Below, piece by piece: positions 16,945-58,067 of a stretch of 64,000 nt of DNA. Where the stretch lies: positions 1 through 64,000 of the IMG/VR virus record IMGVR_UViG_3300028833_000104; one strand, written 5' to 3'. Every line of letters begins with the position of its first letter. The stretch's first letter is position 1. Origin of the DNA: a virus (lineage: Duplodnaviria; Caudoviricetes). A model generated the notes under the pieces. The model saw only the letters and a program-made list of their open reading frames with translations. It ran no database searches and had not been told where the DNA came from. The translations under genes and the position numbers were made by a program.

Positions 16945-16962
16945 CTTCTATTCATCTCCTTA

Positions 16963-36556: not shown

Positions 36557-36574
36557 CAAACATTAAAAAATATT

Positions 36575-36603
36575 AAAAAAGCCATATAAATTATGGCTTT
36601 TTT
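36575..36603 (+). terminator. Intrinsic terminator
   Basis: AAAAAAGCCATA-taaat-TATGGCTTTTTT. Confidence 0.8.
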
Positions 36604-36650
36604 GTTTCATTGTATTGTATAATATATAAAATATGAATGGAGGTAAAGTA

Positions 36651-37040
36651 ATGGAAAGTAATTTAATTACATTATTTAAAAACTATATAGAGATGGAAAA
36701 TAATAGAAAGAAAGTAGCAGAATTAAAAAGTGATTTACTTAAACTAAAGGCGTACATTAAAAAGAAAGTTGGACTTCAAGTTTATACCTATAATGCTTGT
36801 TGTTCCGAATGTTTATGTATAGATTTTGAACATGCTATTAATAGAAAGTATTCCTATGCAAGAATTTGTTTAATAAGTGAACAATTCAATGAAATATTCA
36901 CTGAAGAGGAAAGAAGCTTTCTTAGAGGGGTAAATCATAATTTAATTATTAGACATAATACTGAATTATATAAAGTTTTCACTGATAGAATAATTAATTT
37001 CTATGAAAAGGAGATTGAAAAGTATGCTGCAAGTAAATAA
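36651..37040 (+). CDS. Hypothetical protein
   Basis: GGAGG RBS; TTGTATAAT at 36615. Confidence 0.6.
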   Translation: MESNLITLFKNYIEMENNRKKVAELKSDLLKLKAYIKKKVGLQVYTYNACCSECLCIDFEHAINRKYSYARICLISEQFNEIFTEEERSFLRGVNHNLIIRHNTELYKVFTDRIINFYEKEIEKYAASK

Positions 37041-38475
37041 AGATGATATTGTATCTATCAGAGGTAATTTATATCAATATATTAATGATAATGAATTATG
37101 TGACCTTGTTTGTCCTACTTGTCATTCTAACTATGATTCAAGTTATTATCAAAAATATTCATTAATTCAAATAAAAAATGAACTTATACGTTCACATAAA
37201 TTAGATAAGCATATAAAATTTTATATAAAAGTATGTCCTAAAATGTCATCTATATTTGTAAATAAAGCAATAGCAGCTGGATTTGATTGTGGATTTGCCG
37301 AAATTATTGGTAAAACAACTCCTATTTATATAATGGAAAGAAATGAGCATAATGGTCGTTATATTTGTAGTTCAGTTACAGGTATGGATTTAATGCATTT
37401 ACCTAAATTTTATTTATATGAACTAACTGAAGATAATTTATTGGATTTAGATGTTAATTATATTACTTTTAATCATTTCCTAGATAATAGATATGCATTT
37501 GAAATTACCAATATTAATATTCAATGTTTACCACAATCAAATTTAGGTCCTGCTTGTTTTGTTAAACAACCTGAAAATAAAAGTGCAAATATAACCATTA
37601 GATTAAGTGGCAATACAGATTTAGATGAAAAATTAAAGGAATATTTATACAGTGATGGTAGATATAGTGCAGACGCTGAAATACATTTATCCGGAGATCC
37701 AGATTTATTAACACATTATAGATTAAATTTTTTATCTAACATTGAACATGGATTTGGATTAGATGATGAATGTTTAATATTAGAATATTTATCTGTTGAA
37801 TCTGTGGCTGATATGACTATCAATTCTAGAAGGGATTTAATTTATGGTGATTTTTGTTTACCTCATAGAGATGAAATATGTTCTATTCCACCACTTTCAA
37901 CAGCACACTTTGAAAGTGAAATTCAAAAATTAGAAATGGAACAAAAGTTAAAGGAATATGGTTTGGATAAAATTGATTTAGATAAAATAATGCAAGGTAT
38001 TGATATTAGTTATGAACCTGATCAGCAAGATTTTGTTACATTTAATAAAGCTGATATAGAATTCCAATATGAAATGTATAATAAAGAAAAAGAAGAGGAG
38101 AAAGAAGAAAAAATGATTAAGTTAACAAAAGATGGAAAGTCAAGAGAAATTACTCAAATTGTTATTAATGAGGAAGAAGGTATTGTTACCACAGTAGGTA
38201 ATAAGTTAGGTTTACCTCCAGTTATCGTTAAGAAGGATAAGGATGGTAAGGAATATAAGGAAAATGATCCAAAGGTAGTTACAATGGCTAAGACTGCTGA
38301 GGGTGATGAATTTGATAAGTATACAGGTGTGGCATTAGCATTAGCATATCAATTATTTGGTTCTAAGACTCAATTTAGAAAGTATGTTGATAATGAGGCT
38401 AAGTATATTAAGCAAATTAAGGAAAAGAAAGAAAAAGCAAAAGCAAAGAAAAAGCAAGTAAAAAAGGATAAGTAA
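37024..38475 (+). CDS. Hypothetical protein, probably a fusion with a separately initiated C-terminal domain (ATG 38113)
   Basis: AGGAG RBS; internal ATGTATAAT + GAGGAG + in-frame ATG. Confidence 0.6.
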   Translation: MLQVNKDDIVSIRGNLYQYINDNELCDLVCPTCHSNYDSSYYQKYSLIQIKNELIRSHKLDKHIKFYIKVCPKMSSIFVNKAIAAGFDCGFAEIIGKTTPIYIMERNEHNGRYICSSVTGMDLMHLPKFYLYELTEDNLLDLDVNYITFNHFLDNRYAFEITNINIQCLPQSNLGPACFVKQPENKSANITIRLSGNTDLDEKLKEYLYSDGRYSADAEIHLSGDPDLLTHYRLNFLSNIEHGFGLDDECLILEYLSVESVADMTINSRRDLIYGDFCLPHRDEICSIPPLSTAHFESEIQKLEMEQKLKEYGLDKIDLDKIMQGIDISYEPDQQDFVTFNKADIEFQYEMYNKEKEEEKEEKMIKLTKDGKSREITQIVINEEEGIVTTVGNKLGLPPVIVKKDKDGKEYKENDPKVVTMAKTAEGDEFDKYTGVALALAYQLFGSKTQFRKYVDNEAKYIKQIKEKKEKAKAKKKQVKKDK

Positions 38476-38476
38476 T

Positions 38477-39190
38477 ATGAGTAAAACATATTTTATCTCA
38501 GACTTACATTTCGGGCATAAAAATATTTTACAGTATGAACCATCAAGAATTGATGCTACTTTAGACTATATTAAAAATGTTTTACATAAAGAATGTGAAT
38601 ATACTAAGGAAGACGTTTTAAAAGATTTTGAAACAGAAACTAAATCCTTAGTATATTACATACTAGATTATCATGACGAAATGTTAATTTATAAGTGGAA
38701 TAAAAAAGTTAAGAATTCCGACACTGTTTGGTTTTTAGGTGATTTAGGACTTGGTAATAAGGATTACATTAAATGTTGTACCTTAAAGTTAAATGGTATT
38801 AAAAGAATCGTTAGAGGTAATCATGATACTTTACCTGAAGATTTCTATAAAGATTGTGGGTTTGTTGAAATAGTTCCTAGAAAAAGAGGTACAGTATTAA
38901 AAGATTTCTTTGAATTAAGACATGAACCAAGTGCTTGGATGGCTCCTAATACTATGAGATTCTTTATATTTGGACATGTTCATTCTCAACCACAATATCT
39001 AACTAAAACTGAAAATAGTAGATGCGTTTGTGTTGAAAGACAAAATTTTGAACCTATTGAAATTGAGGAATTCAATAATTATCAAGAGGAAGAAATAGAA
39101 TTAGATCCACATAAAGATATAAAAAATAATATAGCTGAAAAAGCATATATTGATTTTCTAGTAAAAGAGACAATAAAAGGAGATAATTAA
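38477..39190 (+). CDS. Calcineurin-like phosphoesterase
   Basis: SDLHFGH, LGDL, RGNHD, HEP, FGHVH. Confidence 0.85.
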   Translation: MSKTYFISDLHFGHKNILQYEPSRIDATLDYIKNVLHKECEYTKEDVLKDFETETKSLVYYILDYHDEMLIYKWNKKVKNSDTVWFLGDLGLGNKDYIKCCTLKLNGIKRIVRGNHDTLPEDFYKDCGFVEIVPRKRGTVLKDFFELRHEPSAWMAPNTMRFFIFGHVHSQPQYLTKTENSRCVCVERQNFEPIEIEEFNNYQEEEIELDPHKDIKNNIAEKAYIDFLVKETIKGDN

Positions 39191-39191
39191 T

Positions 39192-39446
39192 ATGAATTAT
39201 ACTGAAAGAGAAATAAAGGAAATTAATACTGAATATTCTTTTAACAATATTGATTTTACAAAGTTAAGTATTGAGGATATCTATTTAATTAAGGTTGAAG
39301 TTGGTAATATGAAAAAAGATGATATGATGCAACTTTGCATAAATTTAAAAGAAAAATTAACTGAATATGGAATTGAAAAAGTTCTAATTTGTCCTTGTCA
39401 TAACGGTGTTCCATCATTACAAATTTATAAATTAGAAAAGGAATAA
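39192..39446 (+). CDS. Hypothetical protein
   Basis: AGGAG RBS, operonic. Confidence 0.55.
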   Translation: MNYTEREIKEINTEYSFNNIDFTKLSIEDIYLIKVEVGNMKKDDMMQLCINLKEKLTEYGIEKVLICPCHNGVPSLQIYKLEKE

Positions 39447-39450
39447 TTAT

Positions 39451-39894
39451 ATGGAAGGTGTTTTAAAAACTCTAAAAGGGCAAATTGTAGAGGTATTGGA
39501 TAAACCAAATAGAAATGGTAGAATATATACTACAGAATGTATTGAAAATAATGTTTTAAATAATCCAATAATACAGGAAAGACTAAAATTACACAACTTA
39601 TTTGGAACTTTTACCTTACTTGGAAATGAAGATGTAACACTAACTAATACCTCTCATTGTATTACAAATTTATATATTGAGGATAATTGTTTAAAAGCAG
39701 ATATAGATATACTAGATACTCCAAATGGAAGAATGTTAAAGGAACATTTAGATAAAGGTGAAGGAATTTATCCTTATTTATCAGGAAACGGTGAATTAGA
39801 ATTAGTTGGTTATTGTATGGTTTCCAATTATATATTAGATAACATTTCAATATCAGCTCTAAGTGTTAAAGGTATAGAAGAAAAGGAGAAATAA
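39451..39894 (+). CDS. Prohead protease-like (T4 gp21 family) protein, degenerate
   Basis: DKPNRNGRIY, SHCITNL, ILDTPNGRMLK motifs; GELxHP and SSRG equivalents altered. Confidence 0.65.
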   Translation: MEGVLKTLKGQIVEVLDKPNRNGRIYTTECIENNVLNNPIIQERLKLHNLFGTFTLLGNEDVTLTNTSHCITNLYIEDNCLKADIDILDTPNGRMLKEHLDKGEGIYPYLSGNGELELVGYCMVSNYILDNISISALSVKGIEEKEK

Positions 39895-39895
39895 T

Positions 39896-40330
39896 ATGAG
39901 TACAAGATGTTTAGTTGGTTATAGAGATAAGGATACAGTTCATTATATTTACTGTCATCACGATGGCTATGTGGAGGAACCAGGTGTTGGTTATACCTTA
40001 TTTAATTATTATAAGGATTTAAATAAAATTAAGGATTTAATTTCAAGAGGCAGCACTTCTGATATTGCACCTAACGTTGAAGATTGTAACTTTTACAAGG
40101 AAAAAGGTTGGGGTGAAAAAACCGTTGATGTAGCTAATTATGGCTTTAATTGTCAAGATGATGCGGAATATATTTATCTATTCCAAAACAATGAATGGTA
40201 TGTTTTATATGCAGATTATGAAACTGATAGAAATAACATTGAAAAGGTTGAATATTTACTAAATAAACCTGAGGATGACGAGGAAGATATACCTACTTGG
40301 GATTCAATTTTAAATAAGGTATATAATTAA
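39896..40330 (+). CDS. Hypothetical phage protein (MSTR...IYCHHDGY type)
   Basis: MSTRCLVG...IYCHHDGY...EYIYLF...WYV pattern common in phage early regions. Confidence 0.65.
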   Translation: MSTRCLVGYRDKDTVHYIYCHHDGYVEEPGVGYTLFNYYKDLNKIKDLISRGSTSDIAPNVEDCNFYKEKGWGEKTVDVANYGFNCQDDAEYIYLFQNNEWYVLYADYETDRNNIEKVEYLLNKPEDDEEDIPTWDSILNKVYN

Positions 40331-40345
40331 AATATACCTTTTTTT
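40316..40345 (+). terminator. Intrinsic terminator
   Basis: AAGGTATAT-aattaaa-ATATACCTT plus T-tract. Confidence 0.7.
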
Positions 40346-40381
40346 ATTGTATAATTATTATATATTGAAAGGATTGATTAT

Positions 40382-41044
40382 ATGTTAAATGTAAAACCAT
40401 TAACTCCTCAACAAATTGAGGAAAATAAAAATTTATTTATAAGTTTAGTAAATCAAATTAACATTGATGGGGTAGATAAAGATGGATTGATTAATTATCT
40501 ATTAAATTCAGATTTCTTCTTTGCACCTGCATCTACTAAATATCATTCAAACTTTGATGGTGGATTATGCCAACATAGTTTAAATGTTTATTTTGCACTA
40601 AAGAATTTATATGAAATGTATAGACCTACTATTGGTGATATTGATGAGAATAGTTTAATTATTTGTGGTTTATTCCATGATATTTCAAAAGTTAATTTTT
40701 ATGAAAAATATACTTCAAATAAAAAAATTTATAGTGAACAAGGTTCAAAACATGATAATGGTGGAAAGTTTGATTGGGTAGCAGTAGATGCTTGGAAGGT
40801 TAGAGAGGCAAAAGATAGATTTATTGCTGGAACTCATGAGGAAAATTCAGTACTATTATTAAGTAGATTTATTCCTTTAAATAATGATGAAACTGTTGCC
40901 ATTATGAACCATCATATGCACACTGGCGATGGTGTTCAATTTATGGACCAAACCTTTATTTGTAACCAATATCCATTAGCAGTTTTATTACATACAGCTG
41001 ACTTCTTATCAACATATTGTGTAGAAGGAATTGTAAGTGAATAA
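40382..41044 (+). CDS. HD-domain phosphohydrolase
   Basis: APASTKYH...GGLCQHSLNV...LFHDISK...HHM...LHTAD. Confidence 0.88.
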   Translation: MLNVKPLTPQQIEENKNLFISLVNQINIDGVDKDGLINYLLNSDFFFAPASTKYHSNFDGGLCQHSLNVYFALKNLYEMYRPTIGDIDENSLIICGLFHDISKVNFYEKYTSNKKIYSEQGSKHDNGGKFDWVAVDAWKVREAKDRFIAGTHEENSVLLLSRFIPLNNDETVAIMNHHMHTGDGVQFMDQTFICNQYPLAVLLHTADFLSTYCVEGIVSE

Positions 41045-44981: not shown

Positions 44982-45010
44982 AAAAAGAGGTTTAAAACCT
45001 CTTTTATTTT
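44981..45010. terminator. Bidirectional terminator at convergent junction
   Basis: AAAAGAGGTT-taa-AACCTCTTTT. Confidence 0.8.
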
Positions 45011-45067: not shown

Positions 45068-46357
45068 TTAATTATAACCTAATCTATATACTCTACCACG
45101 CATAATACAATAAATGCAATCATCTTCCTCGGATGCATATAAAGCATTAGTATCAAAAGTACCGAAAGTTTCTATTTGTGATGATGGAACAGTTAATAAT
45201 AAATTAACCTCAAAGGTGTCCATATTAACTTCCTTTATTTCAAGATTATTATTTTTTATGTTAAATGTATATAATTTGTTCTTAAACATAACGCCCGGAT
45301 CCCAAGAGCTATCAATAATATCATCACTTAATTGAACATCTAATTTTGTTAATGTATCATTAACTGGATTATATTCATATACATTTCTACCTATTGTATT
45401 GAAGTTAGGAGCATCTCCTATTGCTAATAAATAGATTTTATTATTATATACTGCTGTGATATAATTTTTTGGATAGGTACTACTACCACTTCCTGGTAAA
45501 ACTGCATTACATCTTGAATAGCTATTATCTGGCACATGAATTTTATAAATAGCGTTACTCATACCACTATTCATATTATTTGCACCAAATACATATATAT
45601 CATCACCTATAACGGCAGAACTTGGAATTCACCAATAAGAATTATTAGCATTATATCCTACAAAGCTATTACCATTAACATCTAAATAACTATAACCTAA
45701 AATAAGACCAAATCAGCTACCGCCACCTAAACCACCAATTCTATAAAGTTTGTCTCCAACTGTTTGTACGCTAGAACCTGATACTAATCTTACCCAACCA
45801 TTAGTATATGTTATTGTAATATTAGTAGTGGTAACTTCACCGGTATGTAAATCGATATACTTTACTTTATCATTAGTTGTATTACTTCCTACTTTATATA
45901 ATCTATTTTTATATCAAGCAGGAGTTCAATTTGTTACAAAATCTTCTATATAATCAACCAAATCAAAAGATCAATATGGAGCTTTCTTTTCTTCCTTGTT
46001 TGGATTTGTTATAGTTAATTTAACTTTAATTTTAGCAATATTTTCTTGTCCTTCTCGAGCATAAGGAGCTAAATTAAAGGATTTATTTTTTGTTTCTAAA
46101 ACGTGATTATTAAAAGTTATTATATAAGTAACTTGAGGATTATACTCAGTTAATTCCTCTAATCCCTCAACATCCCAACTAATAACGGCTCCATTTGCCT
46201 GTAAATTTACTACCTTAGGAACTTTTAAACCTTGTGGTAAGTCTAATACATTATTAGAAAAATTTCTAGGCAATAATTTTTCTGAAGTATTAAATTGATA
46301 TCTAATTGCATCACCTAAATCCTCTAGGTAATCATGTAAATTATTTTGTTTACTCAT
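45068..46357 (-). CDS. Kelch-repeat beta-propeller protein with fibre-type N-terminus, 429 aa
   Basis: ORFs joined via 5 TGA; LEDLGDAIR N-terminus; VGDKLYRIGG, IGDDIYVFG, YNNKIYLL...YEYNP repeats. Confidence 0.75.
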
Positions 46358-46368
46358 TAACTAATCAC

Positions 46369-47634
46369 CTACTTACCAAAAGTTCAAGTTTTATGCTGAC
46401 TCATATTGAATAAATATACCTTACCCTCATATACATGACCATATTGTGGAGTAATGTTATATTCAATGTCTAATTTTTCTATTGTTAAATCTGTTGGATT
46501 AAATACAAATATGCCTCCATTTGATTCCTCAGTTTCCTTTGTGAATATATAGATACTATCTCTAAAATTAACACATATAGGATCTCTAAAAGAATAAGGC
46601 ATTTCAATACTTAATTTTTCAAGTGTTTCAGTTGTGGAATCAAATTTTCAAATTTCATTACCGGCTCCTCCTCAACTGGTTGAATTTGCACAAATTAAAT
46701 AAATATCAGTTGAATATGAACAGATACCATAATCAAACATAGATGCATAGCTTCCTGAACCATGAGGTAAAGTTGCAGCTAATCTAGTAAATGTATTAGT
46801 TTCTGTATTGTGTTTAGTTATCATATTGTAATAACCGTTATTTTGTCCACCAAATATATAAACATTATTGCCAACAGCTGCAGCCTCAACTAATCTTGCG
46901 ACTTGTAATGCTGAATTGTATTGACTTAATGATGGTATATAGTTATTTATTGATGTATCAAAAACCCTTGACCAGTTGGTATAATATCTAAGATTTTGTT
47001 CCCAACCACAATAACATCATATCCTATCTCCTACTGTAACTTGAGCACTTAATCCACCTGTAGTGTTATCTAAAAATACAACACCTAAATCCTCAATTTC
47101 TCCATCTAGAATATTTTGTCTTTTAACTGTTTTGCTAGTTGAAGATGAGTTTGTAGTATCTGAAACCGTATAAACATATTTATCAGCAAAACCATAACTA
47201 TAACTTCCATATAATGTGGTATAAGGTAGTTCTATTATTGCATCTGTTGGAATATATTCAATTTTAATTTCGCTTTCCTCTTTTCCTATAATATCATCTA
47301 AAATAGAAATTACCGCAATATTAGGCATTCCTGATGATATATAAGGAGTTAAATCCACATAATTATTTCTAGTTACAATAGTTTGGTTATTTATGTCAAT
47401 TTGATAGAATGTCGTATGACTGTATCTTTCTAACATATAATTATCAGAAACAGTCCAGCTTAAAATAAGATTACTATCAATATCCACAGAAAGAAATTCA
47501 GGTAATACAATTCCTAAATCTATATTTCTAATTTTGTTTGAAAATTCTTGAACCTTAATTAATTCTTCTGTACCAGTTTTTTGTCTTATAGAATTAGCAA
47601 TATTGGTAAAATATTCTTTTAAAATATTATCCAT
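46369..47634 (-). CDS. Kelch-repeat beta-propeller protein with fibre-type N-terminus, 421 aa
   Basis: ORFs joined via 4 TGA; FTNIANSIRQKTG N-terminus; AVGNNVYIFGG, IWKFDST, IFVFNP repeats. Confidence 0.75.
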
Positions 47635-47638
47635 AATA

Positions 47639-48019
47639 CTAAACCTCTGAGTTCAACTCATCTAGAATTAAACTATCAATATATTCCTTATTCTCGGTTT
47701 TTATTTGTGCTATCTGTTCATCTGAATAACTGCTAATATCTAAATCTATAGGTCCAACATCCTCTAATTCATTACCATACATATCAAGTAATATTAAATG
47801 AATTTGAGGTTTGTTCTCATCATATTCAACTCTAATATTATGAATAAATCATTTATCCGCTTTTGTTTGTTGTATAGTAACATCATGTGGGTTATCAGTT
47901 CTTTTTAAATGTTGTTCTACCTTTTCATTGATTAAATCATCAACATGGTTATAAGGATAGAATCCATTATTTTCTAATTCACTATTTCCGAATCCATAAT
48001 CTTTTTTATTTTTAGGCAT
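47639..48019 (-). CDS. Small protein with HxxxxxNPHxVT tail-fibre repeat, 126 aa
   Basis: Absent from code-11 track (1 TGA); HLKRTDNPHDVT; AGGAGG RBS; late motif at 48040. Confidence 0.6.
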
Positions 48020-48039
48020 TTTACATTACCTCCTATCTA

Positions 48040-48049
48040 TTAATTTAGT
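48040..48049 (-). promoter_or_regulatory. Late-type promoter motif ACTAAATTAA
   Basis: Intergenic copy. Confidence 0.6.
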
Positions 48050-48053
48050 TTTA

Positions 48054-49103
48054 TTAGAAATTATCCTTTCAGTATTCCTCAGGTAAACCTGTGAATTCAT
48101 AATTACTTTTTAATATTGTTTTTATGGTAACAACATGGGTTGAAGAATTTAGTAGTTTATTTTTATGTTTTGACTTTGGCTTGTTTTTTAACTTAGGATT
48201 ATATCCCTTTTCATACTTTGAACAATATGGAAAATTTTCATGAAACCATTTATTAAGTACCTTGTTTTTATATATATCTATACTTGAATCTGTATCGTTT
48301 ATACATATCGTATCAAAGTTATTCAAAACTCTATTAATACTTATATCCCCACTATAACTACTTAAATAACCAACCAATAAATTAGAATTTTCTTGTAGAT
48401 TTATTTTATAAAGATATAAAGAGTATAAGTAACAAGTCAAATTTTTACTTTCTCTGAATTGACTTAAACTATCTAATATATCTTTTTCATAATTATTATA
48501 ACATTCGGCTCATTTAGATTTTAAATAAGGCCTAAATTCGTGACCTAATCTTAAATAAGGAATAGAATTTTTTTTATTAAAAATCAAATCGTTGTTATTC
48601 TGACACATTTGGAAAAAATTACTTTTAGTTGTCTTTGGGTCCTGATTGCTGGATTTAACATTAAATTTAACCTTTGATTCCGTAAAAAAATCTGTTGGTT
48701 GTAAACATGATAGTGCATAAAAATCGTCATTTATATAAATAAAATGTTCCTCTAAATCCTTAATATTATGTAAAAATAACTCTATTGTACCACTGTTAAA
48801 TGTTGGTAGAAATCTTCTTGGAATAAATTGTTCATGTAATATAACTTTTATTTTTGTTTGATCTAATCAATCAGGAACTTGGGAATAAGATTGTACTATA
48901 AAAAATAAATTATTAATTCAACTTAAATTTGTATCAATAGATCTAAACAGATATCTTAAAAAATTATCCTGTCCTCGAAATCTATTTAAGGCATTACTAT
49001 CTTCTTTTTTTAGTTTACTTGGATTATACTTATTATATAATTTTATCCAATTTTCATCAGAACTATCAACATAGGGTATAACTAAATCTACTTTAAACTT
49101 CAT
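48054..49103 (-). CDS. Stealth-family hexose-1-phosphate transferase, 349 aa
   Basis: CR1 VDLVIPYVD, CR2 LRYLFRSIDTNLS(W)...VPD(W)L...HEQFIP..LPTFNS.TIE.FLHNI..L.EHFIYINDD, CR4 CIND; 4 TGA. Confidence 0.9.
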
Positions 49104-50574
49104 AATTTATATCTCACCTTTCTTTTAGATATATTTTCTTTTCATCTGTAAATTTATTTATATTAAAGAAATAATCTAGATTAATTTCTTTTTTACTTCA
49201 AACGGCATCAGTTCTTTTGAATTTTTGATTCATAAATTCATCTAATGTTTTGGTCATATAATGATTTATATATATATTTTCATTCTTATAATTTGATGCA
49301 TCTATTACAATCTCATCTGAACAACTTTTACCGGAAGGATAACATGATTTTGCTACGTCCCTTAATTTATCATAGGATGCATAATGAACAGAATTCATTT
49401 TTAATAAACGTTTACCTTTGATTATACATTTACCGGCATTACTGTATTTACCTTTATTTTTAATTATCTTGGTAAAGAAATTAAAAACAGGTATATTTAA
49501 ATCACGTTGAATTACATTATCATCACCAAATAAGTTTCATTTTATTCTTATTTGATCTACATCAATTTTATTTATTTTTTCTAATAAATAATTTATATTG
49601 TCAATACCATAAATAAATTCATCCACATCTAAAAAGGCACATCAATCATATAGTCTATTATATTTTAATATAAAATCATTATAACATTTTTGTTGTAATT
49701 GTGGTTCATGTTTTCCTTTAACTGAAATAATGGTAACAGCATATCTTAAATGTTTTTTAATATAATGTATTAAATCCTCTTTATCCAAATCATTGTTATC
49801 ATAGATAAATATTTTATCAAAACCAAGTTTTAAATGGTATTCCACTCAATTATTTATGTAAAGTTCTTCATTTTTTGCAATACAAACAGCAACATTTCCT
49901 CATTTACTAGTTTTTATATTATTTAAAAGCCTATAAACTTTATTAATAAATTGTGTATGAGGACAATCTGTATCTCAAATATTATTATCTATTATCTCAA
50001 CATATTTTAAATTATACTTTTTAACATATATATTAAATTCATTGGAATTATAATTTCATGTTTTAGCCTTATTATTAATTACCTTTGTACCCACAAAAAT
50101 TACCTTCTCTAAAACGTTGTATTTTTTTAAAACCTCTATAACTCCTTCTATAAAGTCTTTATATAAGGTTCCGTCTTTTTTATTTACAGAAAATTCATTC
50201 AAATTAAAAGTAAAATAATAATTTTTATTTTTTAGTAATTCATAATAAAAGTTATTAAATGTTTCACATCTTTTTTTAAGTTCTTGTTGATATTTAATTG
50301 TTGAGGGATCATGATGAGCAATTCAAACGGTATCACTAGGATACTTTGAGAAAAATTCATAATCTTCTGGTCAGCTCTTCTTCCTTGGTACCTTATCATA
50401 TGGTGTATTTATAATATAATCTAAGTATTTATTAGAAAATAATAAATCTAAGCACTTAGGTTTCCCAACAATAACGTTATCCACAGGTCCTTTTATTCGA
50501 TTTTTACCTAAAAATCCAATGCAGGCACAATTTCCACCAATAGACATGAATTTCAAATCTTGTAAATTAACCAT
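49093..50574 (-). CDS. Fusion of DUF1796-like papain-fold domain and GT92/GT2-like glycosyltransferase, about 493 aa
   Basis: Three in-frame ORFs joined via 10 TGA; N-term SIGGNC..GPVD..HHD..KKRCETF; C-term CIAKNE.LYINN(W)VEYHLKLGFDKIFIYDNN, (W)CAFLDVDEF, INHY.TK. Confidence 0.8.
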
Positions 50575-50609
50575 ACCTATCTTTCCTTTCAATAAATAGT
50601 ATTTATATA

Positions 50610-50619
50610 ATAATTTAGT
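50610..50619 (-). promoter_or_regulatory. Late-type promoter motif ACTAAATTAT
   Basis: Intergenic, heads the glycosylation/Kelch cassette. Confidence 0.65.
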
Positions 50620-50647
50620 GATAAAAAGAAAAGAGGTATATTCTTAT

Positions 50648-50956
50648 TTATACCCCTTCATATGGTGCTATTTCTCTAATTTTAACACTACCGTCTGTAA
50701 ATAGTATAGCTTCTATATAAGTAACTGCCTCTATTGGCATTAATCTTATTTCATATTCTACACTTTTACTTTCTCTTACAGCAGTCATATAATAGCTTTT
50801 AATTACATTATCTGTAACAAATCTATTTAATTCATCTCTAAAAATATATTTTAGATACATTCTCTTTTCATTATCTGAATTATGATAAATTCTAAAGTAT
50901 TCTTTAACTTTACTAAGTAATGTACCAAAATTTTTAGGTTCTTTACTTATTACCAA
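50648..50956 (-). CDS. Hypothetical protein
   Basis: ORF overlapping end of VWA gene; start uncertain. Confidence 0.5.
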   Translation of the reverse strand: MVISKEPKNFGTLLSKVKEYFRIYHNSDNEKRMYLKYIFRDELNRFVTDNVIKSYYMTAVRESKSVEYEIRLMPIEAVTYIEAILFTDGSVKIREIAPYEGV

Positions 50957-51831
50957 CTAACAACACCACCATTAAAAGGTGTAGCCTCTGTTAAAATTTG
51001 TGTTGTAGGTTCATTAGCGCTATTAGTAACAATTTCTGAAATAACAGCTGGTAAACTATTCATTGTTACTACCTTGTAATGATCCTCAGGTAATACCTCA
51101 GTAAATGTTTGCTTTGCTAATCTCTTATAATATTGATAGCAAGTTGACTCATCATCTACTGCTAAATGATAAATATCAAATTTTTGAGATGCTTCTTGAT
51201 ATAACTTCTTTGTATCAACATCTGCTTGTTCCTTACTACCCATATAAGCATTTAATGCACTTTTACCTAAAACTGGATTTAGAGGTTCATCACCTAATGT
51301 AATGATAATACCTTTTCTACCTCTATTCCAACAATCTAATTTACAATTATGTAAACCAGCATACCAAGCGATAGAGTAAGATTCAAATTGATTACCTCCT
51401 CCACCACCTTCAAAATATACCTTATCTAAATGTTCTGCAATTCTAATATCTGACTCAAATTGTGACATTTGAATTGGTGCATTATCATATTCAATATCAC
51501 CAATAGCCATAATACTGAATTCAACATCCTTAGTTTGTGATAAGATATCAGTCATAATCTTATTTAAAGTTTTTGCAACCTTAACAGCACCGTTACCCAT
51601 TGAACCTGTAACATCTAAACCTAAAATTACAGGAATTGTATTTGGATGCTCTGCACTATCGCAACATTCTCTAATCTTATTCTTAATATTTAAATCTTCA
51701 TTTAAACGTCTAGAAGTAAATCTTTCTTGAGCTGTAAAGCTATCTGTTACAACTCCTGACTTATCTAAAGTATAACCTCTACTAGTTGCATAGCTTGAAT
51801 AAGAACTTGTAGTCCAAGATCCGCCACCCAT
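50950..51831 (-). CDS. von Willebrand factor A (MIDAS) domain protein
   Basis: MGGGSW start; GLDVTGSMG, AIGD, QFESD, EGGGGGNQFESY, TLGDE. Confidence 0.85.
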   Translation of the reverse strand: MGGGSWTTSSYSSYATSRGYTLDKSGVVTDSFTAQERFTSRRLNEDLNIKNKIRECCDSAEHPNTIPVILGLDVTGSMGNGAVKVAKTLNKIMTDILSQTKDVEFSIMAIGDIEYDNAPIQMSQFESDIRIAEHLDKVYFEGGGGGNQFESYSIAWYAGLHNCKLDCWNRGRKGIIITLGDEPLNPVLGKSALNAYMGSKEQADVDTKKLYQEASQKFDIYHLAVDDESTCYQYYKRLAKQTFTEVLPEDHYKVVTMNSLPAVISEIVTNSANEPTTQILTEATPFNGGVVSW

Positions 51832-51834
51832 AAA

Positions 51835-52443
51835 TTATTCCTCCTTTGTTTCTACTTCTTCGTCTTCATCACCAAATAGGTTATCAAACATTCCGCCTTC
51901 ACCATCGAAGTTAAACATATCTCCAAATGGATTAGATCCACCTGACATCATCATTAACATCATTGGATTCATTCCGCCAGTATTTCCACCAAATAGGTTT
52001 CCACCATTACCAAACATTGTATTCATCATCATATACTTCATAATGGTATTCTTATCAAATGCCTTATTACCAAACATTGATACAATCTTTGAATACATAT
52101 AAGTTCCACCTAAGAATGTATGTCTTTCAGGTAGAATATTTTTAATTGATGCATCATCATAATTTAAAATCTTAATTTCTCCATCAGTTTCAGGTGCTAG
52201 TACATATGCAGGTTTACCACTAACTAAAATAATATCTCCTGCTTTAACCTTATTTGTAGGTACTACGAAGAAGAATTCTGAACCAATATCAAATACGAAA
52301 TTATCACAATTAATTAATCTTTTCTTCTTTGCATCATAATACTTATAATCATTACCAATCTTTACTGCCATTTGTCCATTTAAACCTAATCTAATAAGTC
52401 CTGGTTGAACTTTACCAAATGTAAAATTACTTAATACACTCAT
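51835..52443 (-). CDS. Hypothetical protein with Met/Gly-rich low-complexity C-terminus
   Basis: MKYMMMNTMFG...MNPMMLMMMSGG; AGGAG RBS; TTGTATAAAT at 52475-52484. Confidence 0.7.
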   Translation of the reverse strand: MSVLSNFTFGKVQPGLIRLGLNGQMAVKIGNDYKYYDAKKKRLINCDNFVFDIGSEFFFVVPTNKVKAGDIILVSGKPAYVLAPETDGEIKILNYDDASIKNILPERHTFLGGTYMYSKIVSMFGNKAFDKNTIMKYMMMNTMFGNGGNLFGGNTGGMNPMMLMMMSGGSNPFGDMFNFDGEGGMFDNLFGDEDEEVETKEE

Positions 52444-52468
52444 TTTTAATATCTCCTTTTCTTTTTTA

Positions 52469-53602
52469 CTAATTATTTATACAATTAACTTCATCATAAA
52501 ATCTAAAAATCTGAGTAAAATTTTTATTTTTTATTTTTTCTGAAGGTAATTCCTCTTCATTACAATGTGTAACTACTAGATAATTCTTTGCATATAGATT
52601 ACTATCTATAATATCTGAATCAATTCTTTCCATCATATTTTGAATAGATTCATCATCAAACTTTGCAAATCTAATACAACCTTGATATAAATTTGGTTTA
52701 TTAGTTTGATCTTCATAATCTAAATCAATATCTTCGTTTTCTAATACACCATCACCGTGTCTACTTAGATAAGTTCTAGTTATATAATATCTATGAATTT
52801 CATGCTCAGTTTTTTGAGCGTCTGCCATATATAATAACCATTCAGGAATAATTGAACCTGTTCTAGTAGGAGTACCATTTACTTTATCATACTCCTTATC
52901 TAATCCTAAACCTTGACCTTGTTCAAAAGTAATGTTATCATATTCATTATATATTTCCTTCATAGATTTAATTGCAATATTATTAAAGAAGAAATCTAAA
53001 TCTTTTAAGAAATTATTAATAATGAAATTATCTTCCTTAATTAATTTACTTTCTTCATAATCACTATTCTTAATCCATTCTAATTCCTTATAATATTCCT
53101 TTATTTTTAATAGTTCTTCAACCCATATATCTTTATTACCGTATAGGTCTGAAACCCTTTTAAAATGGAAGTTTTTATCATTGTATCTATCAATAGTCTC
53201 TTTAATACCACAACCTGTACTTCTATTACTAATACCTCTTCTAGTACCTTTACCTCTTAATTTCTCTCTTACAATATTTGCTAAACAATCAAATGGAGTT
53301 GTTAATCTACATTCATAACCAACATATAATAAAGGTTTATTTCCTAATTCTACAAATTCTTCTCTAAACTTAATAGGATTTACAATAAATTCTGAACTAG
53401 CATAAGTTGCAGCACCTTTTAGTGTTGCACTTCCAAAATGATGGAATACATGTCTTTTACCTTCATATACCACGGTATGACCTCTTTGTGGACCACCATT
53501 AGTTAATACTACAACACCTTCTTTTGGAGTTATGTAGTTTGTAAATAAACCTTTTCCTTCATCACCATAATTGGCTCCAATTACAATATTTATTTTTTTC
53601 AT
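52469..53602 (-). CDS. purA: Divergent adenylosuccinate synthetase-like protein
   Basis: IGANYGDEGKG, NGGPQRGHTV, STGCGIKET, FEQGQGLGLD, TRTYLSRHGDG. Confidence 0.8.
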   Translation of the reverse strand: MKKINIVIGANYGDEGKGLFTNYITPKEGVVVLTNGGPQRGHTVVYEGKRHVFHHFGSATLKGAATYASSEFIVNPIKFREEFVELGNKPLLYVGYECRLTTPFDCLANIVREKLRGKGTRRGISNRSTGCGIKETIDRYNDKNFHFKRVSDLYGNKDIWVEELLKIKEYYKELEWIKNSDYEESKLIKEDNFIINNFLKDLDFFFNNIAIKSMKEIYNEYDNITFEQGQGLGLDKEYDKVNGTPTRTGSIIPEWLLYMADAQKTEHEIHRYYITRTYLSRHGDGVLENEDIDLDYEDQTNKPNLYQGCIRFAKFDDESIQNMMERIDSDIIDSNLYAKNYLVVTHCNEEELPSEKIKNKNFTQIFRFYDEVNCINN

Positions 53603-53604
53603 TA

Positions 53605-54030
53605 CTACACACCCCATTTCTGTAAAACATTGTTGGCAAAATCCTCTGCCCATTTTTGATTATGAGGGTCCTCAGGCTCATAATCACATCCATAATCCTC
53701 TATATCATAAGCAGATATCCAACCATAATTAGGATCTTCATATCCACCACGTTGACGCATTTTATCATATTCCTTGTAATACTCGTATGCTCCTCTAGAT
53801 AAATATGTTTCTTTTAAAAATTTAAAAGCTTCGTCTCTATTACAAGGATAAGTATCTTTATATCTATATGGTTCTAATGTTGGTTGTACATTATCTTCAA
53901 TAACTTTACCGATATAATTAGGTCCGGAAACTAAATCTCCAACCTTAATATTTTCATTTGCTTTATAAACATATTTGGTTGATGAATAAGTATTACCCAT
54001 ATAATATTGTTCTAATCTAACTAATCTCAT
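53605..54030 (-). CDS. Hypothetical protein
   Basis: Operonic ORF. Confidence 0.6.
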   Translation of the reverse strand: MRLVRLEQYYMGNTYSSTKYVYKANENIKVGDLVSGPNYIGKVIEDNVQPTLEPYRYKDTYPCNRDEAFKFLKETYLSRGAYEYYKEYDKMRQRGGYEDPNYGWISAYDIEDYGCDYEPEDPHNQKWAEDFANNVLQKWGV

Positions 54031-54031
54031 A

Positions 54032-54271
54032 TTATAACACCTTCTTAATTACACCGTATGCTGAATTATCACCGCTATATTGCCAACGAACAATACCATC
54101 TTCATCTCTATACATGTCTTGTTTTTGGTGTTCAGGTTTTAAATAGGATTGAAATACATCCCATCTATCCTCCCAATCACAAACTGCTTTAACATCAGCA
54201 ATACAAATCTTTTCATCGGTAATTGAATCTAAATATTTTATATCTTCAAATACAATTATTACCGCTCTCAT
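54032..54271 (-). CDS. Hypothetical protein
   Basis: AGGAGG RBS. Confidence 0.6.
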   Translation of the reverse strand: MRAVIIVFEDIKYLDSITDEKICIADVKAVCDWEDRWDVFQSYLKPEHQKQDMYRDEDGIVRWQYSGDNSAYGVIKKVL

Positions 54272-54282
54272 ATTTAATCCTC

Positions 54283-55560
54283 CTACTTTTTATTTTCTAA
54301 TTCTCTACAAACCTTAGCAATTTCCTTTAACCCCTTTTCAGCGTATTGTAGGTTCTTTACCTTAAATGAAAAACCAATTCCTCTTTCCTTATTATAATCA
54401 AAACTCTTAACAACAATACCTTCATGTTGTAAATAAGTTTTCCATAATTTATCATTTTCATTTGGATGATATTGTAAACCGGTATTGATTGTTTGAGGAG
54501 TCCAAGCAACACCTTCAGCATATTTTACTAACTTATCAATAGTATCAAATTGACCCATATCATTAATTACATCTACTAATGGAACTCTTTGTAAACCTAA
54601 CTTATCAAGAATTGGTGCCATTTCATACCAGTTTCTTTCAATCCACTTACCATCAATTAATTCCTTTAATCTAAATACAAACCATTGTATTTCCTTAAAG
54701 TCATAAATATTTTCTTGAATACCTGGACCTACTTGTTCACCTTGAATCATTAATAAGTGACCAGTTTTCTTATAATATTCCTTTAACTTCTTTGCAATAT
54801 CATATCTTTTTGCTGTGTTATAGAAAAGTATACCATTACTTTCACCTTCAACTAATCTATTATTTCTAGAACATACATAGAATTCATACTTCTTTTTAGG
54901 GTCTAATGAACAAGTAAATGATTGACCTTCCATCTTAGCTGTAATAAATGCGCTAGTTCCAGGAAACTCGCTAATAAGTGCTTTACGATTTTGAATTGTA
55001 TCTTCATCAGACTTTGAAATAATATTTGTTGGAAATGAGCCTTTTGTATACTTTCTGCGTCTAGCATCCATATACATATTTCCAATCCATCTAGTTAATT
55101 TATGTTTTAAGAAGAACTTAATAATTCTAGGAACCTTTGGCATCTTTTTAGGGGACGCATCCTCTTCTGGTTCATACTTTCTAATATTTAATTTATCAGT
55201 TACATCAGTTTCAGGTTTTAAATTTTCAGGTAATCCTGCTTCTTTTAAAGTTACGCATAAACCCCAAGACTTAACTCTATCACCTTTTTCACCATTTAAA
55301 TCCTTTGCACCCATTGTCATAGGCTTAATTAAAAATCCTTTTAAGTCTTCTCTATAACAACGCTTTCTTAAAAATTCCCATTTTTGCTCTACTGGTAAAA
55401 TAGCACCTTCTTGAATAAATACCATTTTATCACCAACATTATTTTCTACTGGGACAATTGCTTCATAACCATTTTCCTTGAATGTTACTACACAAATTCT
55501 ATCCTTTTCAAACATCTTATTTTTTGTTTCAATACTTACAATACTTGCTAAATCTCTCAT
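54283..55560 (-). CDS. RNA ligase (Rnl2/DRB0094-like)
   Basis: TAKMEGQS (motif I), VCSRN, QGEQVGPGIQ, EGIVVK, SFKVKN; N-terminal OB-like domain. Confidence 0.85.
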   Translation of the reverse strand: MRDLASIVSIETKNKMFEKDRICVVTFKENGYEAIVPVENNVGDKMVFIQEGAILPVEQKWEFLRKRCYREDLKGFLIKPMTMGAKDLNGEKGDRVKSWGLCVTLKEAGLPENLKPETDVTDKLNIRKYEPEEDASPKKMPKVPRIIKFFLKHKLTRWIGNMYMDARRRKYTKGSFPTNIISKSDEDTIQNRKALISEFPGTSAFITAKMEGQSFTCSLDPKKKYEFYVCSRNNRLVEGESNGILFYNTAKRYDIAKKLKEYYKKTGHLLMIQGEQVGPGIQENIYDFKEIQWFVFRLKELIDGKWIERNWYEMAPILDKLGLQRVPLVDVINDMGQFDTIDKLVKYAEGVAWTPQTINTGLQYHPNENDKLWKTYLQHEGIVVKSFDYNKERGIGFSFKVKNLQYAEKGLKEIAKVCRELENKK

Positions 55561-55571
55561 ATTACCATCTC

Positions 55572-56123
55572 CTAAACTATTCTCATAACTTGTTTTACTT
55601 TTAATTTTGAATATGGATTTAAACCATTTTCCATATAAACATCTACAATAATATATGTCTTATCTAAAACTTTAATATAGTCATATTTATCAGCTAACAT
55701 ACTATTAGTATAAATTATTGTATCGTCCTCTTCATCACCTATACAACAATTAATTTCATAAAGGTTAAAATTTTCTGTATCAAAAACTTTTGCTTTTAAA
55801 TCAAATCTAATACGGTTTGCTACAGAATCTTCTAATTTATTAGAACTAAAATTAAGCCAAACTTGTCCGTGTTGAGGATCTTCTAATTCAGAATTAGATT
55901 TATCCTTTTCTTTCTTTTCAGGACCTGGACTTATAAATGTTATACTAGCTTCCATTAATAATATTAAAGTTGTCATTCCCCAAAATATCCAACTAAATGG
56001 AGTTATAATTGAGGTAGAATCCTCTTTTACATTAATAATGATAAAGATATAAAATGGAATCATAAATCCTAATACAATTAATGTCATTATTAAAAATGTA
56101 ATTAATTTCTTTTTCCTAGTCAT
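55572..56123 (-). CDS. Membrane protein (2 N-terminal TM helices)
   Basis: Hydrophobic segments in first 65 aa. Confidence 0.6.
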   Translation of the reverse strand: MTRKKKLITFLIMTLIVLGFMIPFYIFIIINVKEDSTSIITPFSWIFWGMTTLILLMEASITFISPGPEKKEKDKSNSELEDPQHGQVWLNFSSNKLEDSVANRIRFDLKAKVFDTENFNLYEINCCIGDEEDDTIIYTNSMLADKYDYIKVLDKTYIIVDVYMENGLNPYSKLKVKQVMRIV

Positions 56124-56187
56124 AATTTTACACCTTCCTTTTAATTTACATTTATATTATATATTAAAATATAAATAAAATCAAGAC

Positions 56188-56598
56188 CTAATTTATATAT
56201 ATCTTAGCTATATATGGATATTCAGTTAATAAATTAATATTAGCTATTCTACCGGATTCAAGATTTTTATCTTTTATAATCTTCACTTTAATATTATTAG
56301 GTTTATTATATCCAATTACTTCATATATAGTATTAAATTTTCTAAATTCAATTGTTGAAGATTCGATATATTTTGGTGTAGGAGGATTATCAAAAGTTAT
56401 ATAATCACCAATAGCAAATTCTTGACTTCTATCCTTTTCAATTTGGATAGTTTCCTCCTCTTTTTGTGGGTTAATTTCATTTATCAAATCTGCCATGAAT
56501 TCATTTATAATTGTTGCCTCATTTACCTTATCGGCTAATAAATAAGTTTTAACTTTATTATATCCTATTCTAAGAATTTGTTGAATAATATTTTCCAT
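56188..56598 (-). CDS. Hypothetical protein
   Basis: ORF with RBS. Confidence 0.55.
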   Translation of the reverse strand: MENIIQQILRIGYNKVKTYLLADKVNEATIINEFMADLINEINPQKEEETIQIEKDRSQEFAIGDYITFDNPPTPKYIESSTIEFRKFNTIYEVIGYNKPNNIKVKIIKDKNLESGRIANINLLTEYPYIAKIYIN

Positions 56599-56610
56599 AT
56601 AATTATTTTC

Positions 56611-56928
56611 CTACCTTTCATTTAATTGCCATTCTTTATAATCTTCCCATATATCATCATACATCTTAATATATTTTTCGGCATCTTCTTTTAAACAAGG
56701 TACAGCCCAAGAACTACCAAAAGGTTCAACATAAATTCCTAGATTATAAGCAACCGAATTCATACAAGCTACCATAATTTCGGATTCATCTAAATTTTCC
56801 CTACCTGGTAATTTTCTATATAATTTTTCAGTCCAATATTTATGTCTAAATAAAATACCTGTTGAATAAGCAATTTTCATTGCTAATCTATATTCTAATT
56901 TATATCCTTCATCATCAAAATCAGTCAT
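56611..56928 (-). CDS. Hypothetical protein
   Basis: GAGGTG RBS; TTGTATAAAT at 56961-56970. Confidence 0.6.
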   Translation of the reverse strand: MTDFDDEGYKLEYRLAMKIAYSTGILFRHKYWTEKLYRKLPGRENLDESEIMVACMNSVAYNLGIYVEPFGSSWAVPCLKEDAEKYIKMYDDIWEDYKEWQLNER

Positions 56929-56971
56929 CTATTTCACCTCTAATTTTTAATTTTCATATTATTTATACAAT

Positions 56972-56993
56972 AAAAAAAGAGCGATATTCGCTC
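56972..56993 (-). terminator. Intrinsic terminator after nrdG
   Basis: GAGCGA-atat-CGCTC hairpin plus 7-T tract on - strand. Confidence 0.7.
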
Positions 56994-57018
56994 AAATTTT
57001 AATATTTTTTAATATTTT

Positions 57019-57546
57019 TTAATTTTCATATAATGTTATTTCTTGATTTTGTAATGTTTTCTTTACATCAATTACTCTTTGATTTGCTGAACCTTTATAT
57101 TTTAAATTAGGATTTGCCTTATCAATTTCAAATTGACCATCAACTACAACATCAAGATTTTTAATTAATTCTAAATAATTTCTAACATCCTCATATTTTA
57201 AAATTAAATCATCAAATAAAGCATCTACTTCAAATCCTGTCCATAACCAAATATCTTTACCAGGACATTCTTTTCTAAATCTTTTTACAATTTCTAAAAC
57301 TGTATCTACATTATTTTCATGTAAAGGTTCCCCTCCTAAAATACTTAATCCTTGAATATGTTCACCTTTACATAAGTCTATTAACTTATCAAATATTTCA
57401 TCTGTAAATTCTTTTCCACCATTAAAGTCCCAAGTATCTTGATTAAAACATCCTTTACAATGAAATGAACATCCTTGAACAAATATACTTACTCTAATTC
57501 CTGGACCATTTGAAATATCTGTTTTTCTTATTTTTGCATATCTCAT
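57019..57546 (-). CDS. nrdG: Anaerobic ribonucleotide reductase activating enzyme (radical SAM)
   Basis: DISNGPGIRVSIFVQGCSFHCKGCFN, LGGEPL, DVVVDG, KGSANQRVID. Confidence 0.95.
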   Translation of the reverse strand: MRYAKIRKTDISNGPGIRVSIFVQGCSFHCKGCFNQDTWDFNGGKEFTDEIFDKLIDLCKGEHIQGLSILGGEPLHENNVDTVLEIVKRFRKECPGKDIWLWTGFEVDALFDDLILKYEDVRNYLELIKNLDVVVDGQFEIDKANPNLKYKGSANQRVIDVKKTLQNQEITLYEN

Positions 57547-57594
57547 AATTAGTACCTCCACCTTATAAATAATTATACAATAAACAGGAAAAAT

Positions 57595-57635: not shown

Positions 57636-58040
57636 TTAACAGTACATATCGGCTATTTCACCAGGATTAACATAAATGAATAAATAGTCGTTATCTATTA
57701 TTGAGTGTAAAAGTTGGCTATGCATTCTTACCATAAAGTTACCTGCAGGTTGTTTAATAGCATCCTTGATTTTGTTATACACACTTTCACGGTTATCCTC
57801 AGTTATTTTTATACTCTTATACTCAGCATTATTGGGGTCAGTATAACCAATATATAAATATACAGGAGGTTTATCCTCTGCAGACCACTCTATAAGCATA
57901 TCTCGTAATCAATTTAAATCAATACTTTCAAATTTGTCAGTTTTAACTTTATTTAAAATAGCAGGTTCAAAAAGACCTTCATTAATTTTTTTACTTTTAC
58001 CATTTAATTCTTTCAAGGCTTCTTTTATTGAATATGACAT
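57636..58040 (-). CDS. Hypothetical protein with own late-type promoter, inserted between nrdD and nrdG, 134 aa
   Basis: AGGAG RBS; extended upstream through 1 TGA; ACTAAATTAT at 58058-58067. Confidence 0.6.
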
Positions 58041-58057
58041 AATATCTCTCCTTATAA

Positions 58058-58067
58058 ATAATTTAGT
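58058..58067 (-). promoter_or_regulatory. Late-type promoter motif ACTAAATTAT
   Basis: Intergenic copy. Confidence 0.6.

Follow-up and report, generated by a model that had tools for sequence, protein, structure and literature searches.

The window analysed here, the initial 64 kb of one virus contig of 100,764 bp (IMG/VR record IMGVR_UViG_3300028833_000104; guanine-plus-cytosine (GC) content 27%, CheckV completeness 57%), comes from a contractile-tailed phage whose tryptophan codons are sharply divided between genes that use TGA and genes that avoid it. The long and tightly packed open reading frames (ORFs) of the window appear only when TGA is read through. The partition into TGA-free and TGA-rich blocks is real, lies far beyond chance and is conserved in a relative, and one of its boundaries, at 50.6 kb, falls on a predicted terminator followed by the motif ACTAAATTA. 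We read it as the mark of a code switch during infection. Code-neutral genes, which lack in-frame TGA and end in TAA or TAG, read the same under the standard code (code 11) and under code 4; beside them would stand suppressor-dependent genes, and TGA would have been purged wherever a product is needed before suppression or in high copy. To this reading as a whole we assign a probability of about 70%.

The partition of tryptophan codons and the 50.6-kb boundary

ORFs were called with TGA as a sense codon, and in-frame TGA and TGG were counted gene by gene. The five genes at 45068-50592 hold 25 TGA and 9 TGG, the eleven genes at 50648-57561 (the small ORF 54032-54271 included) hold 0 TGA and 31 TGG, and a second TGA-free stretch at 35244-41044 holds 14 TGG. 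A preliminary description of this DNA had given about 24:9, 0:31 and 0:14 for these stretches and 10:0 for the glycosyltransferase; the recount returns the last three unchanged. The features concerned are as follows.

44983-45005, no strand assigned: bidirectional terminator-like hairpin between the converging plus-strand arm (end 44981) and the TGA-rich minus-strand cassette (end 45068)
45068-46357, minus: Kelch-repeat protein, 5 TGA and 4 TGG
46369-47661, minus: Kelch-repeat protein, 5 TGA and 3 TGG
47639-48019, minus: small protein with no assigned family, 1 TGA and 0 TGG, weak orthologue in the relative G001 (introduced below)
48041-48049, minus: internal copy of ACTAAATTA (structural-gene, putative late promoter motif), 30 nt before 47639-48019
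48054-49103, minus: Stealth-family (CR2/CR4) protein, 4 TGA and 2 TGG
49093-50592, minus: GT2/GT92-like glycosyltransferase, 10 TGA and 0 TGG
50611-50619, minus: copy of ACTAAATTA at the switch, 27 nt upstream of the glycosyltransferase ORF
50630-50659, minus: terminator-like hairpin and T-run closing the TGA-free unit, whose last gene ends inside it, at 50648
50648-57561, minus: TGA-free block of 11 genes, namely 50648-50956; 50950-51831 (vWA-like, phrog_2971); 51835-52443; 52469-53653 (PurZ/adenylosuccinate-synthetase-like); 53605-54030; 54032-54271; 54283-55560 (RNA ligase); 55572-56123; 56188-56598; 56611-56928; and 57019-57561 (NrdG-type radical-SAM activase)
56962-56970, minus: host-type extended -10-like motif TTGTATAAA, 42 nt before 56611-56928 and preceded by a terminator at 56993-56979
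57572-57580, minus: host-type extended -10-like motif TTGTATAAT, 19 nt before the NrdG gene and preceded by a terminator at 57613-57598, which parts the block from gene 57636-58040
58059-58067, minus: ACTAAATTA motif before the single gene 57636-58040 (1 TGA, 1 TGG)
35244-41044, plus: second TGA-free block (SPFH protein, phosphoesterase, HD phosphohydrolase and others; 0 TGA, 14 TGG), with TTGTATAAT motifs at 36615 and 40347
16276-18516, minus: tail tube (16276-16944) and tail sheath (16963-18516), TGA-free with 11 TGG, with ACTAAATTA motifs at 18554 and 18601

The two adjoining stretches differ at p = 8.2e-11 (Fisher test), and at the contig's TGA share of 0.34 the chance of meeting no TGA among 31 Trp codons is 2.7e-6. 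Over the whole contig Trp is written 137 times as TGA and 267 times as TGG (66% TGG), with TGA present in 59 of 133 ORFs (44%). A comparison gene by gene yields a between-gene heterogeneity of 208, compared with 108 +/- 11.5 under permutation of the labels, and none of 2000 permutations reached the observed value. Genes of like state also cluster along the contig: 34 runs of TGA state are found, against 55 +/- 5 in 5000 shuffles of the gene order, none of which came so low, and the longest TGG-only run extends over 46 codons (shuffle mean 18, P = 0.0004). The depletion concerns the reading frame alone: out of frame, TGA trinucleotides are equally common in the TGA-free blocks and in the TGA-rich block. 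At the other A/G-ending pairs (Lys, Glu, Gln, Leu TTR and Arg AGR) the A-ending codon takes a share of 0.65-0.96, and a locus of a native code-4 Mycoplasmatales genome (29% GC) has 22 TGA and no TGG. Mutation therefore favours TGA here, as had been supposed from the AT-richness of the genome.

Stop codons were inspected as well. Six of the 10 stops in 50950-57561 are TAG but only 1 of 7 in G001, so that this feature is not kept and is probably due to chance. Vestigial TGA stops near gene ends were considered and dropped, as 6 TGA were found in the last seven codons against 3.8 expected (P = 0.18), and G001 gave a similar result.

Two promoter-like motifs recur. ACTAAATTA occurs 12 times in the window compared with 4.4 expected, 25-45 nt before the tail-fibre, baseplate, sheath and other structural genes, with further copies at 48049 and 58067. 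TTGTATA(A/T)(A/T) resembles an extended -10 box; 21 sense-strand copies and no antisense copy lie in upstream intergenic DNA (0.87 expected by composition), and those before the NrdG gene and before 56611-56928 each directly follow a terminator. From the motifs and the functions of the genes behind them we infer that ACTAAATTA is a late promoter and the TTGTATA type a host-type promoter. The code switch at 50.6 kb is accordingly a predicted transcription-unit boundary, with a terminator at 50659-50630 and then ACTAAATTA at 50619-50611, where a late-type promoter at 50610 had already been claimed to mark the switch. Upstream would lie TTGTATAAT-driven operons with NrdG, the RNA ligase and the PurZ-like enzyme, and downstream the ACTAAATTA-driven cassette of glycosyltransferase, Stealth protein and two Kelch proteins.

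From one sheep-gut RNA library come contigs (X3, X19) that cover both blocks; being assembled contigs, they permit no ranking or timing of genes. Two RNA contigs, both of this one study, stop at 50657 and 50665, in the predicted terminator, a point that DNA contigs cross; this hints only weakly at the 3' end of a transcript.

TGA as tryptophan and the conservation of TGA avoidance

The relative G001 (IMG/VR UViG_3300021399_000106) was found through the RNA ligase of the TGA-free block. Its 166,546-bp genome (93% complete, 27% GC) is also TGA-recoded, with a coding density of 0.92 under code 4 and 0.78 under code 11, and is syntenic with the contig in reversed orientation. In 94 reciprocal-best gene pairs, 87 of 104 aligned TGA codons of the contig face a Trp codon of G001, a share no different from that of its TGG codons (156 of 186). 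TGA and TGG are interchanged 55 times in these pairs; where the partner is not Trp it is mostly Phe or Tyr, and Gly does not occur. Two distant standard-code relatives, L011 and L012, have TGG opposite three of four aligned TGA codons. The alignments thus indicate that TGA is read as Trp in this phage.

The suppressor lies outside the window, at contig positions 99556-99631: a tRNA with anticodon UCA (ARAGORN, label SeC) that scores 34.9 bits in the Rfam tRNA model (threshold 29) and whose gene encodes the CCA end. Read manually within the ARAGORN boundaries, it has an A1-U72 pair and G73, which we take to be Trp-type identity features. A TTGTATA-type motif is found about 160 nt upstream, and about 140 nt without an assigned feature lie between the two. 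The suppressor tRNA of G001 (38184-38259) differs in the acceptor stem and in the discriminator (A73 vs G73). Altogether G001 carries 31 tRNAs, among them Sup(UCA) and Trp(CCA), plus a transfer-messenger RNA (tmRNA), and its tryptophanyl-tRNA synthetase (TrpRS; E = 6e-91 to solved TrpRS structures), which is TGA-free, adjoins the suppressor tRNA. The right end of the contig cuts through the tRNA array, 100606-100764 holding tRNA-His and then a truncated third tRNA. The genome is therefore incomplete, and the lost part probably holds tRNAs and a tmRNA, as the corresponding place in G001 does. No release-factor gene was found in the contig (57% complete), in G001 or in the other relatives.

The state of a gene is largely kept between the two phages. 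The orthologue check on TGG-only usage that had been suggested gave 25 of 29 TGA-free genes TGA-free in G001, and the TGA-bearing state is kept for 39 of 48 (odds ratio 27, p = 9e-9). The G001 orthologues from NrdG to the RNA ligase contain 0 TGA and 25 TGG; after them come ACTAAATTA at 90721, a block with 27 TGA and 4 TGG made up mostly of glycosyl genes non-orthologous to the cassette described here, and a gene of 2013 aa (13:3). Since the swapped cargo of G001 is equally TGA-rich, TGA richness tracks the position and the unit, and not the ancestry of the genes. The code boundary thus lies exactly on a predicted terminator-plus-promoter junction and is kept in G001 despite the exchange of what follows it.

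Comparison of the two genomes separates selection from drift. Mean protein identity between them is 0.70 in both the TGA-free and the TGA-bearing genes, and A/G turnover at conserved residues is alike in the two classes (TGA-free vs TGA-bearing: Lys 32% vs 31%, Glu 20% vs 23%, Gln 16% vs 19%). At conserved Trp, by contrast, the codon differs at 4 of 71 sites (6%) in TGA-free genes and at 51 of 172 (30%) in TGA-bearing genes. As divergence at other codons is equal, TGG is held specifically in the TGA-free genes, and the avoidance is due to selection, one of the two causes named in the preliminary description. Outside these genes TGA and TGG appear to behave as neutral synonyms. The TGA share of the cassette is 0.74 (G001 0.87), and the A-ending share of the other pairs in the same genes is 0.76-0.91. 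The former reaches but does not exceed the latter, so positive selection for TGA is not required. This argues that the selected trait is avoidance of TGA, not enrichment.

The same comparison bears on a historical account, in which code-11 phages were the recent source of the TGA-free genes, the alternative offered in the preliminary description, or a code-4 donor that of the TGA-rich cassette. Although L011 and L012 have the same RNA-repair genes, and although the cassette is variable cargo with little orthology to G001, we regard this account as highly improbable and reject the import from code-11 phages. The TGA-free genes are syntenic and TGA-free in G001 at 70% mean protein identity, which is not the mark of a recent arrival; their Lys, Glu and Gln codons have turned over as much as elsewhere while TGG was held; non-Trp codon usage is nearly the same in TGA-free and TGA-bearing genes (r = 0.995), as is GC at third codon positions (0.154 vs 0.137); and what G001 carries in that place, though not orthologous, is no less rich in TGA (27:4).

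Small differences in codon usage were noted over the whole contig, TGA-free genes having lower ATA among Ile codons (0.25 vs 0.34, p = 1.6e-5) and higher AAG among Lys codons (0.35 vs 0.28). The AAG share of a gene correlates only weakly with its TGA share (rho -0.17, p = 0.13). The idea that TGA-free genes lie nearer to host codon usage is unsupported, since the ATA share of Ile in the candidate-host loci, a small sample, is 0.30-0.36 and not below that of the phage.

Promoter class, timing and copy number

Each gene was allotted to the closest motif upstream of it on its strand, a crude rule under which 11 genes of the contig and 20 of G001 have no assignment. Sorted in this way, genes in ACTAAATTA units have a TGA share of 0.51 (55:53) and those in TTGTATA units one of 0.22 (56:202; p = 1e-7), the corresponding shares in G001 being 0.61 and 0.26 (p = 5e-15). 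The preliminary description had proposed that TGA-free genes are those that must be made before suppression is established. The enrichment of TGA behind ACTAAATTA agrees with that proposal, but the sheath and tube, late by their motif, are TGA-free: their count is 0:11 where the remaining tail genes total 23:22 (p = 0.0016), and in G001 it is 0:9 where these total 39:6 (p = 9e-7). Nor do early and late genes separate simply by TGA use, as TTGTATA-type motifs precede the TGA-containing primase, helicase, loader, single-stranded DNA-binding protein and NrdD (1:5) genes, as well as those for DNA polymerase, ligase and SNF2. TGA-free virion genes behind ACTAAATTA and TGA-bearing replication genes behind TTGTATA make a rule of early genes only too simple. 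TGA is absent from all genes that act on tRNA or RNA, namely both RNA ligases, polynucleotide kinase, the CCA-adding enzyme and the TrpRS of G001. Considered jointly, timing and copy number give a better fit than timing by itself, and the TGA-free state of sheath and tube argues that protein abundance matters besides timing.

The course of events that we propose would run as follows. Host RNA polymerase and ribosomes would express the code-neutral genes at once, and the phage tRNA(UCA) would be transcribed too. As it accumulates, this tRNA would compete with release factor 2 (RF2), and TGA-bearing genes would become productive. Wherever a gene is not expressed until the suppressor is abundant, and its product is needed in modest amounts, TGA and TGG could drift to an equilibrium driven by AT bias, giving TGA-rich blocks, while TGA would be purged from genes required before suppression and from very high-copy late proteins such as sheath and tube. 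Gating of the late cassette would then be a by-product, at most a fail-safe on top of its late promoter. Expression timing, host identity and suppression efficiency are the parts of the model that we infer.

Expression level might also be taken as the sole cause, TGA being avoided in high-copy proteins on account of inefficient suppression, with timing irrelevant. The TGA-free sheath and tube amid TGA-bearing tail genes of both phages suit such an account, as do the slightly lower ATA and higher AAG of TGA-free genes. It nevertheless seems very unlikely to us, for the TGA-free blocks include numerous small accessory and enzyme genes whose products can hardly be the most abundant, TGA use strongly tracks promoter class, the tRNA- and RNA-repair genes and the G001 TrpRS are all TGA-free, and codon usage apart from Trp is near-identical between the classes.

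Several points weigh against the code-switch reading. The labels early and late derive from promoter-like motifs and gene functions. Units behind host-type motifs are mixed, with the DNA ligase at 3:0, SNF2 at 5:1 and the polymerase at 4:5, so that promoter class alone is no predictor. The host is assigned only by the similarity of the TrpRS of a relative (58%), by GC and by habitat. The contig, about 57% complete, lacks the head genes and most of the tRNA array, and genome-wide statements here refer to 100 kb. Finally, at conserved Trp positions in TGA-bearing genes, TGA stands closer to the 5' end than TGG does (0.43 vs 0.58, p = 0.0016; in G001 0.46 vs 0.57, p = 0.017), which neutral drift does not predict.

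This last point touches on the suggestion, made in the preliminary description, that TGA may act as an expression gate. In this view, which is a strong form of the model of Borges et al., TGA would have been favoured by positive selection in the late cassette and in further genes, whose translation it would delay until the tRNA accumulates. The boundary meets the late motif in both phages, TGA is 5'-biased in both, the first in-frame TGA falls at a median of 16% of gene length, and a membrane protein at 20809-21267 has 8 of its 10 Trp codons as TGA, a conserved trait. All this would suit a gate. We still consider a purpose-built gate unlikely: the cassette's TGA share of 0.74 does not rise above the 0.76-0.91 of the other A/G pairs, the 30% turnover of TGA/TGG equals the neutral AAA/AAG turnover of Lys in TGA-bearing genes (31%), the cassette already has its own promoter and a preceding terminator, and the 5' bias is expected equally under a gate and from minimising the cost of failed suppression where suppression is leaky.

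A related and rather doubtful proposal goes further, taking the placement of TGA itself as selected to serve as a translational timer, 5'-biased and heaviest in the small membrane protein and the late cassette, with a Mycoplasma code imposed in mid-infection on standard-code, Mollicutes-like gut Bacilli. In that case UGA = Trp decoding could have a natural way into lineages of AT-rich Bacilli through phages of this kind.

The 152-aa protein at 20809-21267 (plus strand) carries an HEFGH motif and has no family match; its G001 orthologue stands at 6:3, and it might be lysis-related. A second TGA-heavy gene, contig 70555-71265 (minus strand, 236 aa), has 8 of its 12 Trp codons as TGA amid mostly TGA-poor genes (G001 9:3), and has no family match either.

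Host, known recoded phages and other genes

Public sequencing runs containing this stretch are gut metagenomes of sheep and other ruminants. The nearest cellular relatives of the G001 TrpRS (57-58% identity) are metagenome-assembled genomes (MAGs) of gut 'Bacilli' and Acholeplasmatales, one of them from goat rumen; an Anaeroplasmataceae MAG follows at 53%, and GC at the TrpRS-bearing loci of these MAGs is 24-30%. A search of four of them (gut Bacilli, Acholeplasmatales, Anaeroplasmataceae) found prfB in each, scoring above the curated cut-off, and TGG as the codon for Trp, whereas a Mycoplasmatales MAG (TrpRS 47% identity) is without prfB and uses TGA. The host is thus most likely a standard-code, RF2-bearing, low-GC member of the Bacilli, a lead and not proof. 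A host that natively reads UGA as Trp and lacks RF2, the patchy TGA then being the unfinished drift of a once code-11 phage, is scarcely credible. The 27% GC of the phage and the TrpRS affinities do lead to Mollicutes-like Bacilli, a group that includes code-4 orders. Yet the nearest MAGs searched have prfB and use TGG, and phages of natively recoded hosts have about 90% of their genes recoded according to Borges et al. (10.1101/2021.08.26.457843). The control locus stands at 22:0 compared with 137:267 in the phage, which has TGA in only 44% of its ORFs, and a code-4 host would impose no hold on TGG in TGA-free genes while synonymous turnover elsewhere is saturating.

The code-switch study of Borges et al. 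was reportedly published in 2022 in Nat Microbiol, and Yutin et al. are said to have described block-wise dual coding in crAss-like phages in 2021. The present phage shares with the latter contiguous blocks with or without the reassigned stop codon, but it is a myovirus with sheath and tube, not a podovirus, and its 34 short alternating runs in 100 kb differ from two large blocks. With the code 4 of Mycoplasmatales and Entomoplasmatales it shares an AT-rich genome and UGA read as Trp by a tRNA(UCA). Native code 4, however, has almost all Trp as TGA (22:0 in the control, no prfB), unlike the 66% TGG and the strictly TGA-free operons found here. In T4-type phages the temporal programme is purely transcriptional, and a tRNA-repair module (polynucleotide kinase, RNA ligase 1) is present. 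As in T4, NrdD/NrdG and RNA-repair genes lie behind host-type promoters and a distinct short AT-rich motif precedes virion genes; unlike in T4, a codon-level dependence on a phage tRNA would be superimposed, and the promoter classes here come from motifs only.

The closest parallels are the TGA- and TAG-recoded gut phages of standard-code hosts, with 26-71% of genes recoded, for which Borges et al. (10.1101/2021.08.26.457843) put forward the same code-switch model as the preliminary description. There the alternatively coded modules are dispersed over the genome, use in replication genes varies and lysis genes are the most heavily recoded; the Jade clade has a 'code change module' in standard code with a suppressor tRNA, TrpRS and release factor 1 (RF1) (10.1101/2021.08.26.457843). 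Mgcod (10.1101/2022.06.29.495998) was written for such block-wise code use in phages. By description the present phage resembles the 'gemstone' clades (Agate, Jade): a large animal-gut phage with TGA in 44% of its genes and its own tRNA(UCA), scattered recoded modules, variable use in replication genes and an inferred standard-code host. As in Jade, the code-change genes are in standard code, with the TrpRS beside the suppressor tRNA in G001; unlike in Jade, whose module includes RF1, a release-factor gene was found in neither the contig nor G001. In contrast to the recoded structural genes of that description, the highest-copy tail proteins here avoid TGA. The pattern is thus a clean new example of the published code-switch phages and not a new principle. 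What it adds is modest: the coincidence of code boundary and predicted transcription-unit junction, a two-genome turnover contrast (6% vs 30%) pointing to avoidance as the selected trait, and the lack of TGA in high-copy tail proteins.

Tail fibre, sheath and tube were found by family searches, which also identified in the window SbcCD, a UvsX-like recombinase, clamp-loader subunits, NrdD/NrdG, a SNF2 helicase, an RNA ligase and the PurZ-like adenylosuccinate synthetase. Past the window the contig carries DNA polymerase, primase, helicase, ligase, 7-deazaguanine genes, polynucleotide kinase, RNA ligase 1 and a CCA-adding enzyme. Capsid, portal and terminase genes were not recognised in the contig (57% complete). 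In G001, 25398-26450 is a candidate major capsid protein (weak Gp23 match and Atlas leads) whose one Trp codon is uninformative on TGA use; no identity was obtained for its 701-aa neighbour. Gene callers need TGA as sense here, or else the glycosyltransferase/Kelch cassette and the replication and tail genes fragment.

Megablast of 40-60 kb against deposited phage genomes gave no match. Pattern scans of viral contigs for the sheath and glycosyltransferase gave no relatives, a result of little weight, as patterns containing Trp cannot match TGA-coded relatives. Homologues of the PurZ-like gene (L003-L008) were tried as a comparison set and dropped, being too distant and of different GC. Two of them, L003 and L008 (IMG/VR), have a coding density of 0.95 with TAG as sense against 0.87 and may be TAG-recoded phages. 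The PurZ-like synthetase (phrog_1211; 52469-53653) and the HD phosphohydrolase (40382-41044) occur in the same phage as a DpdA/QueE/GTP-cyclohydrolase cluster (contig 64.9-70.2 kb), and with PurZ-like and 7-deazaguanine genes together the phage DNA may carry two kinds of base modification.

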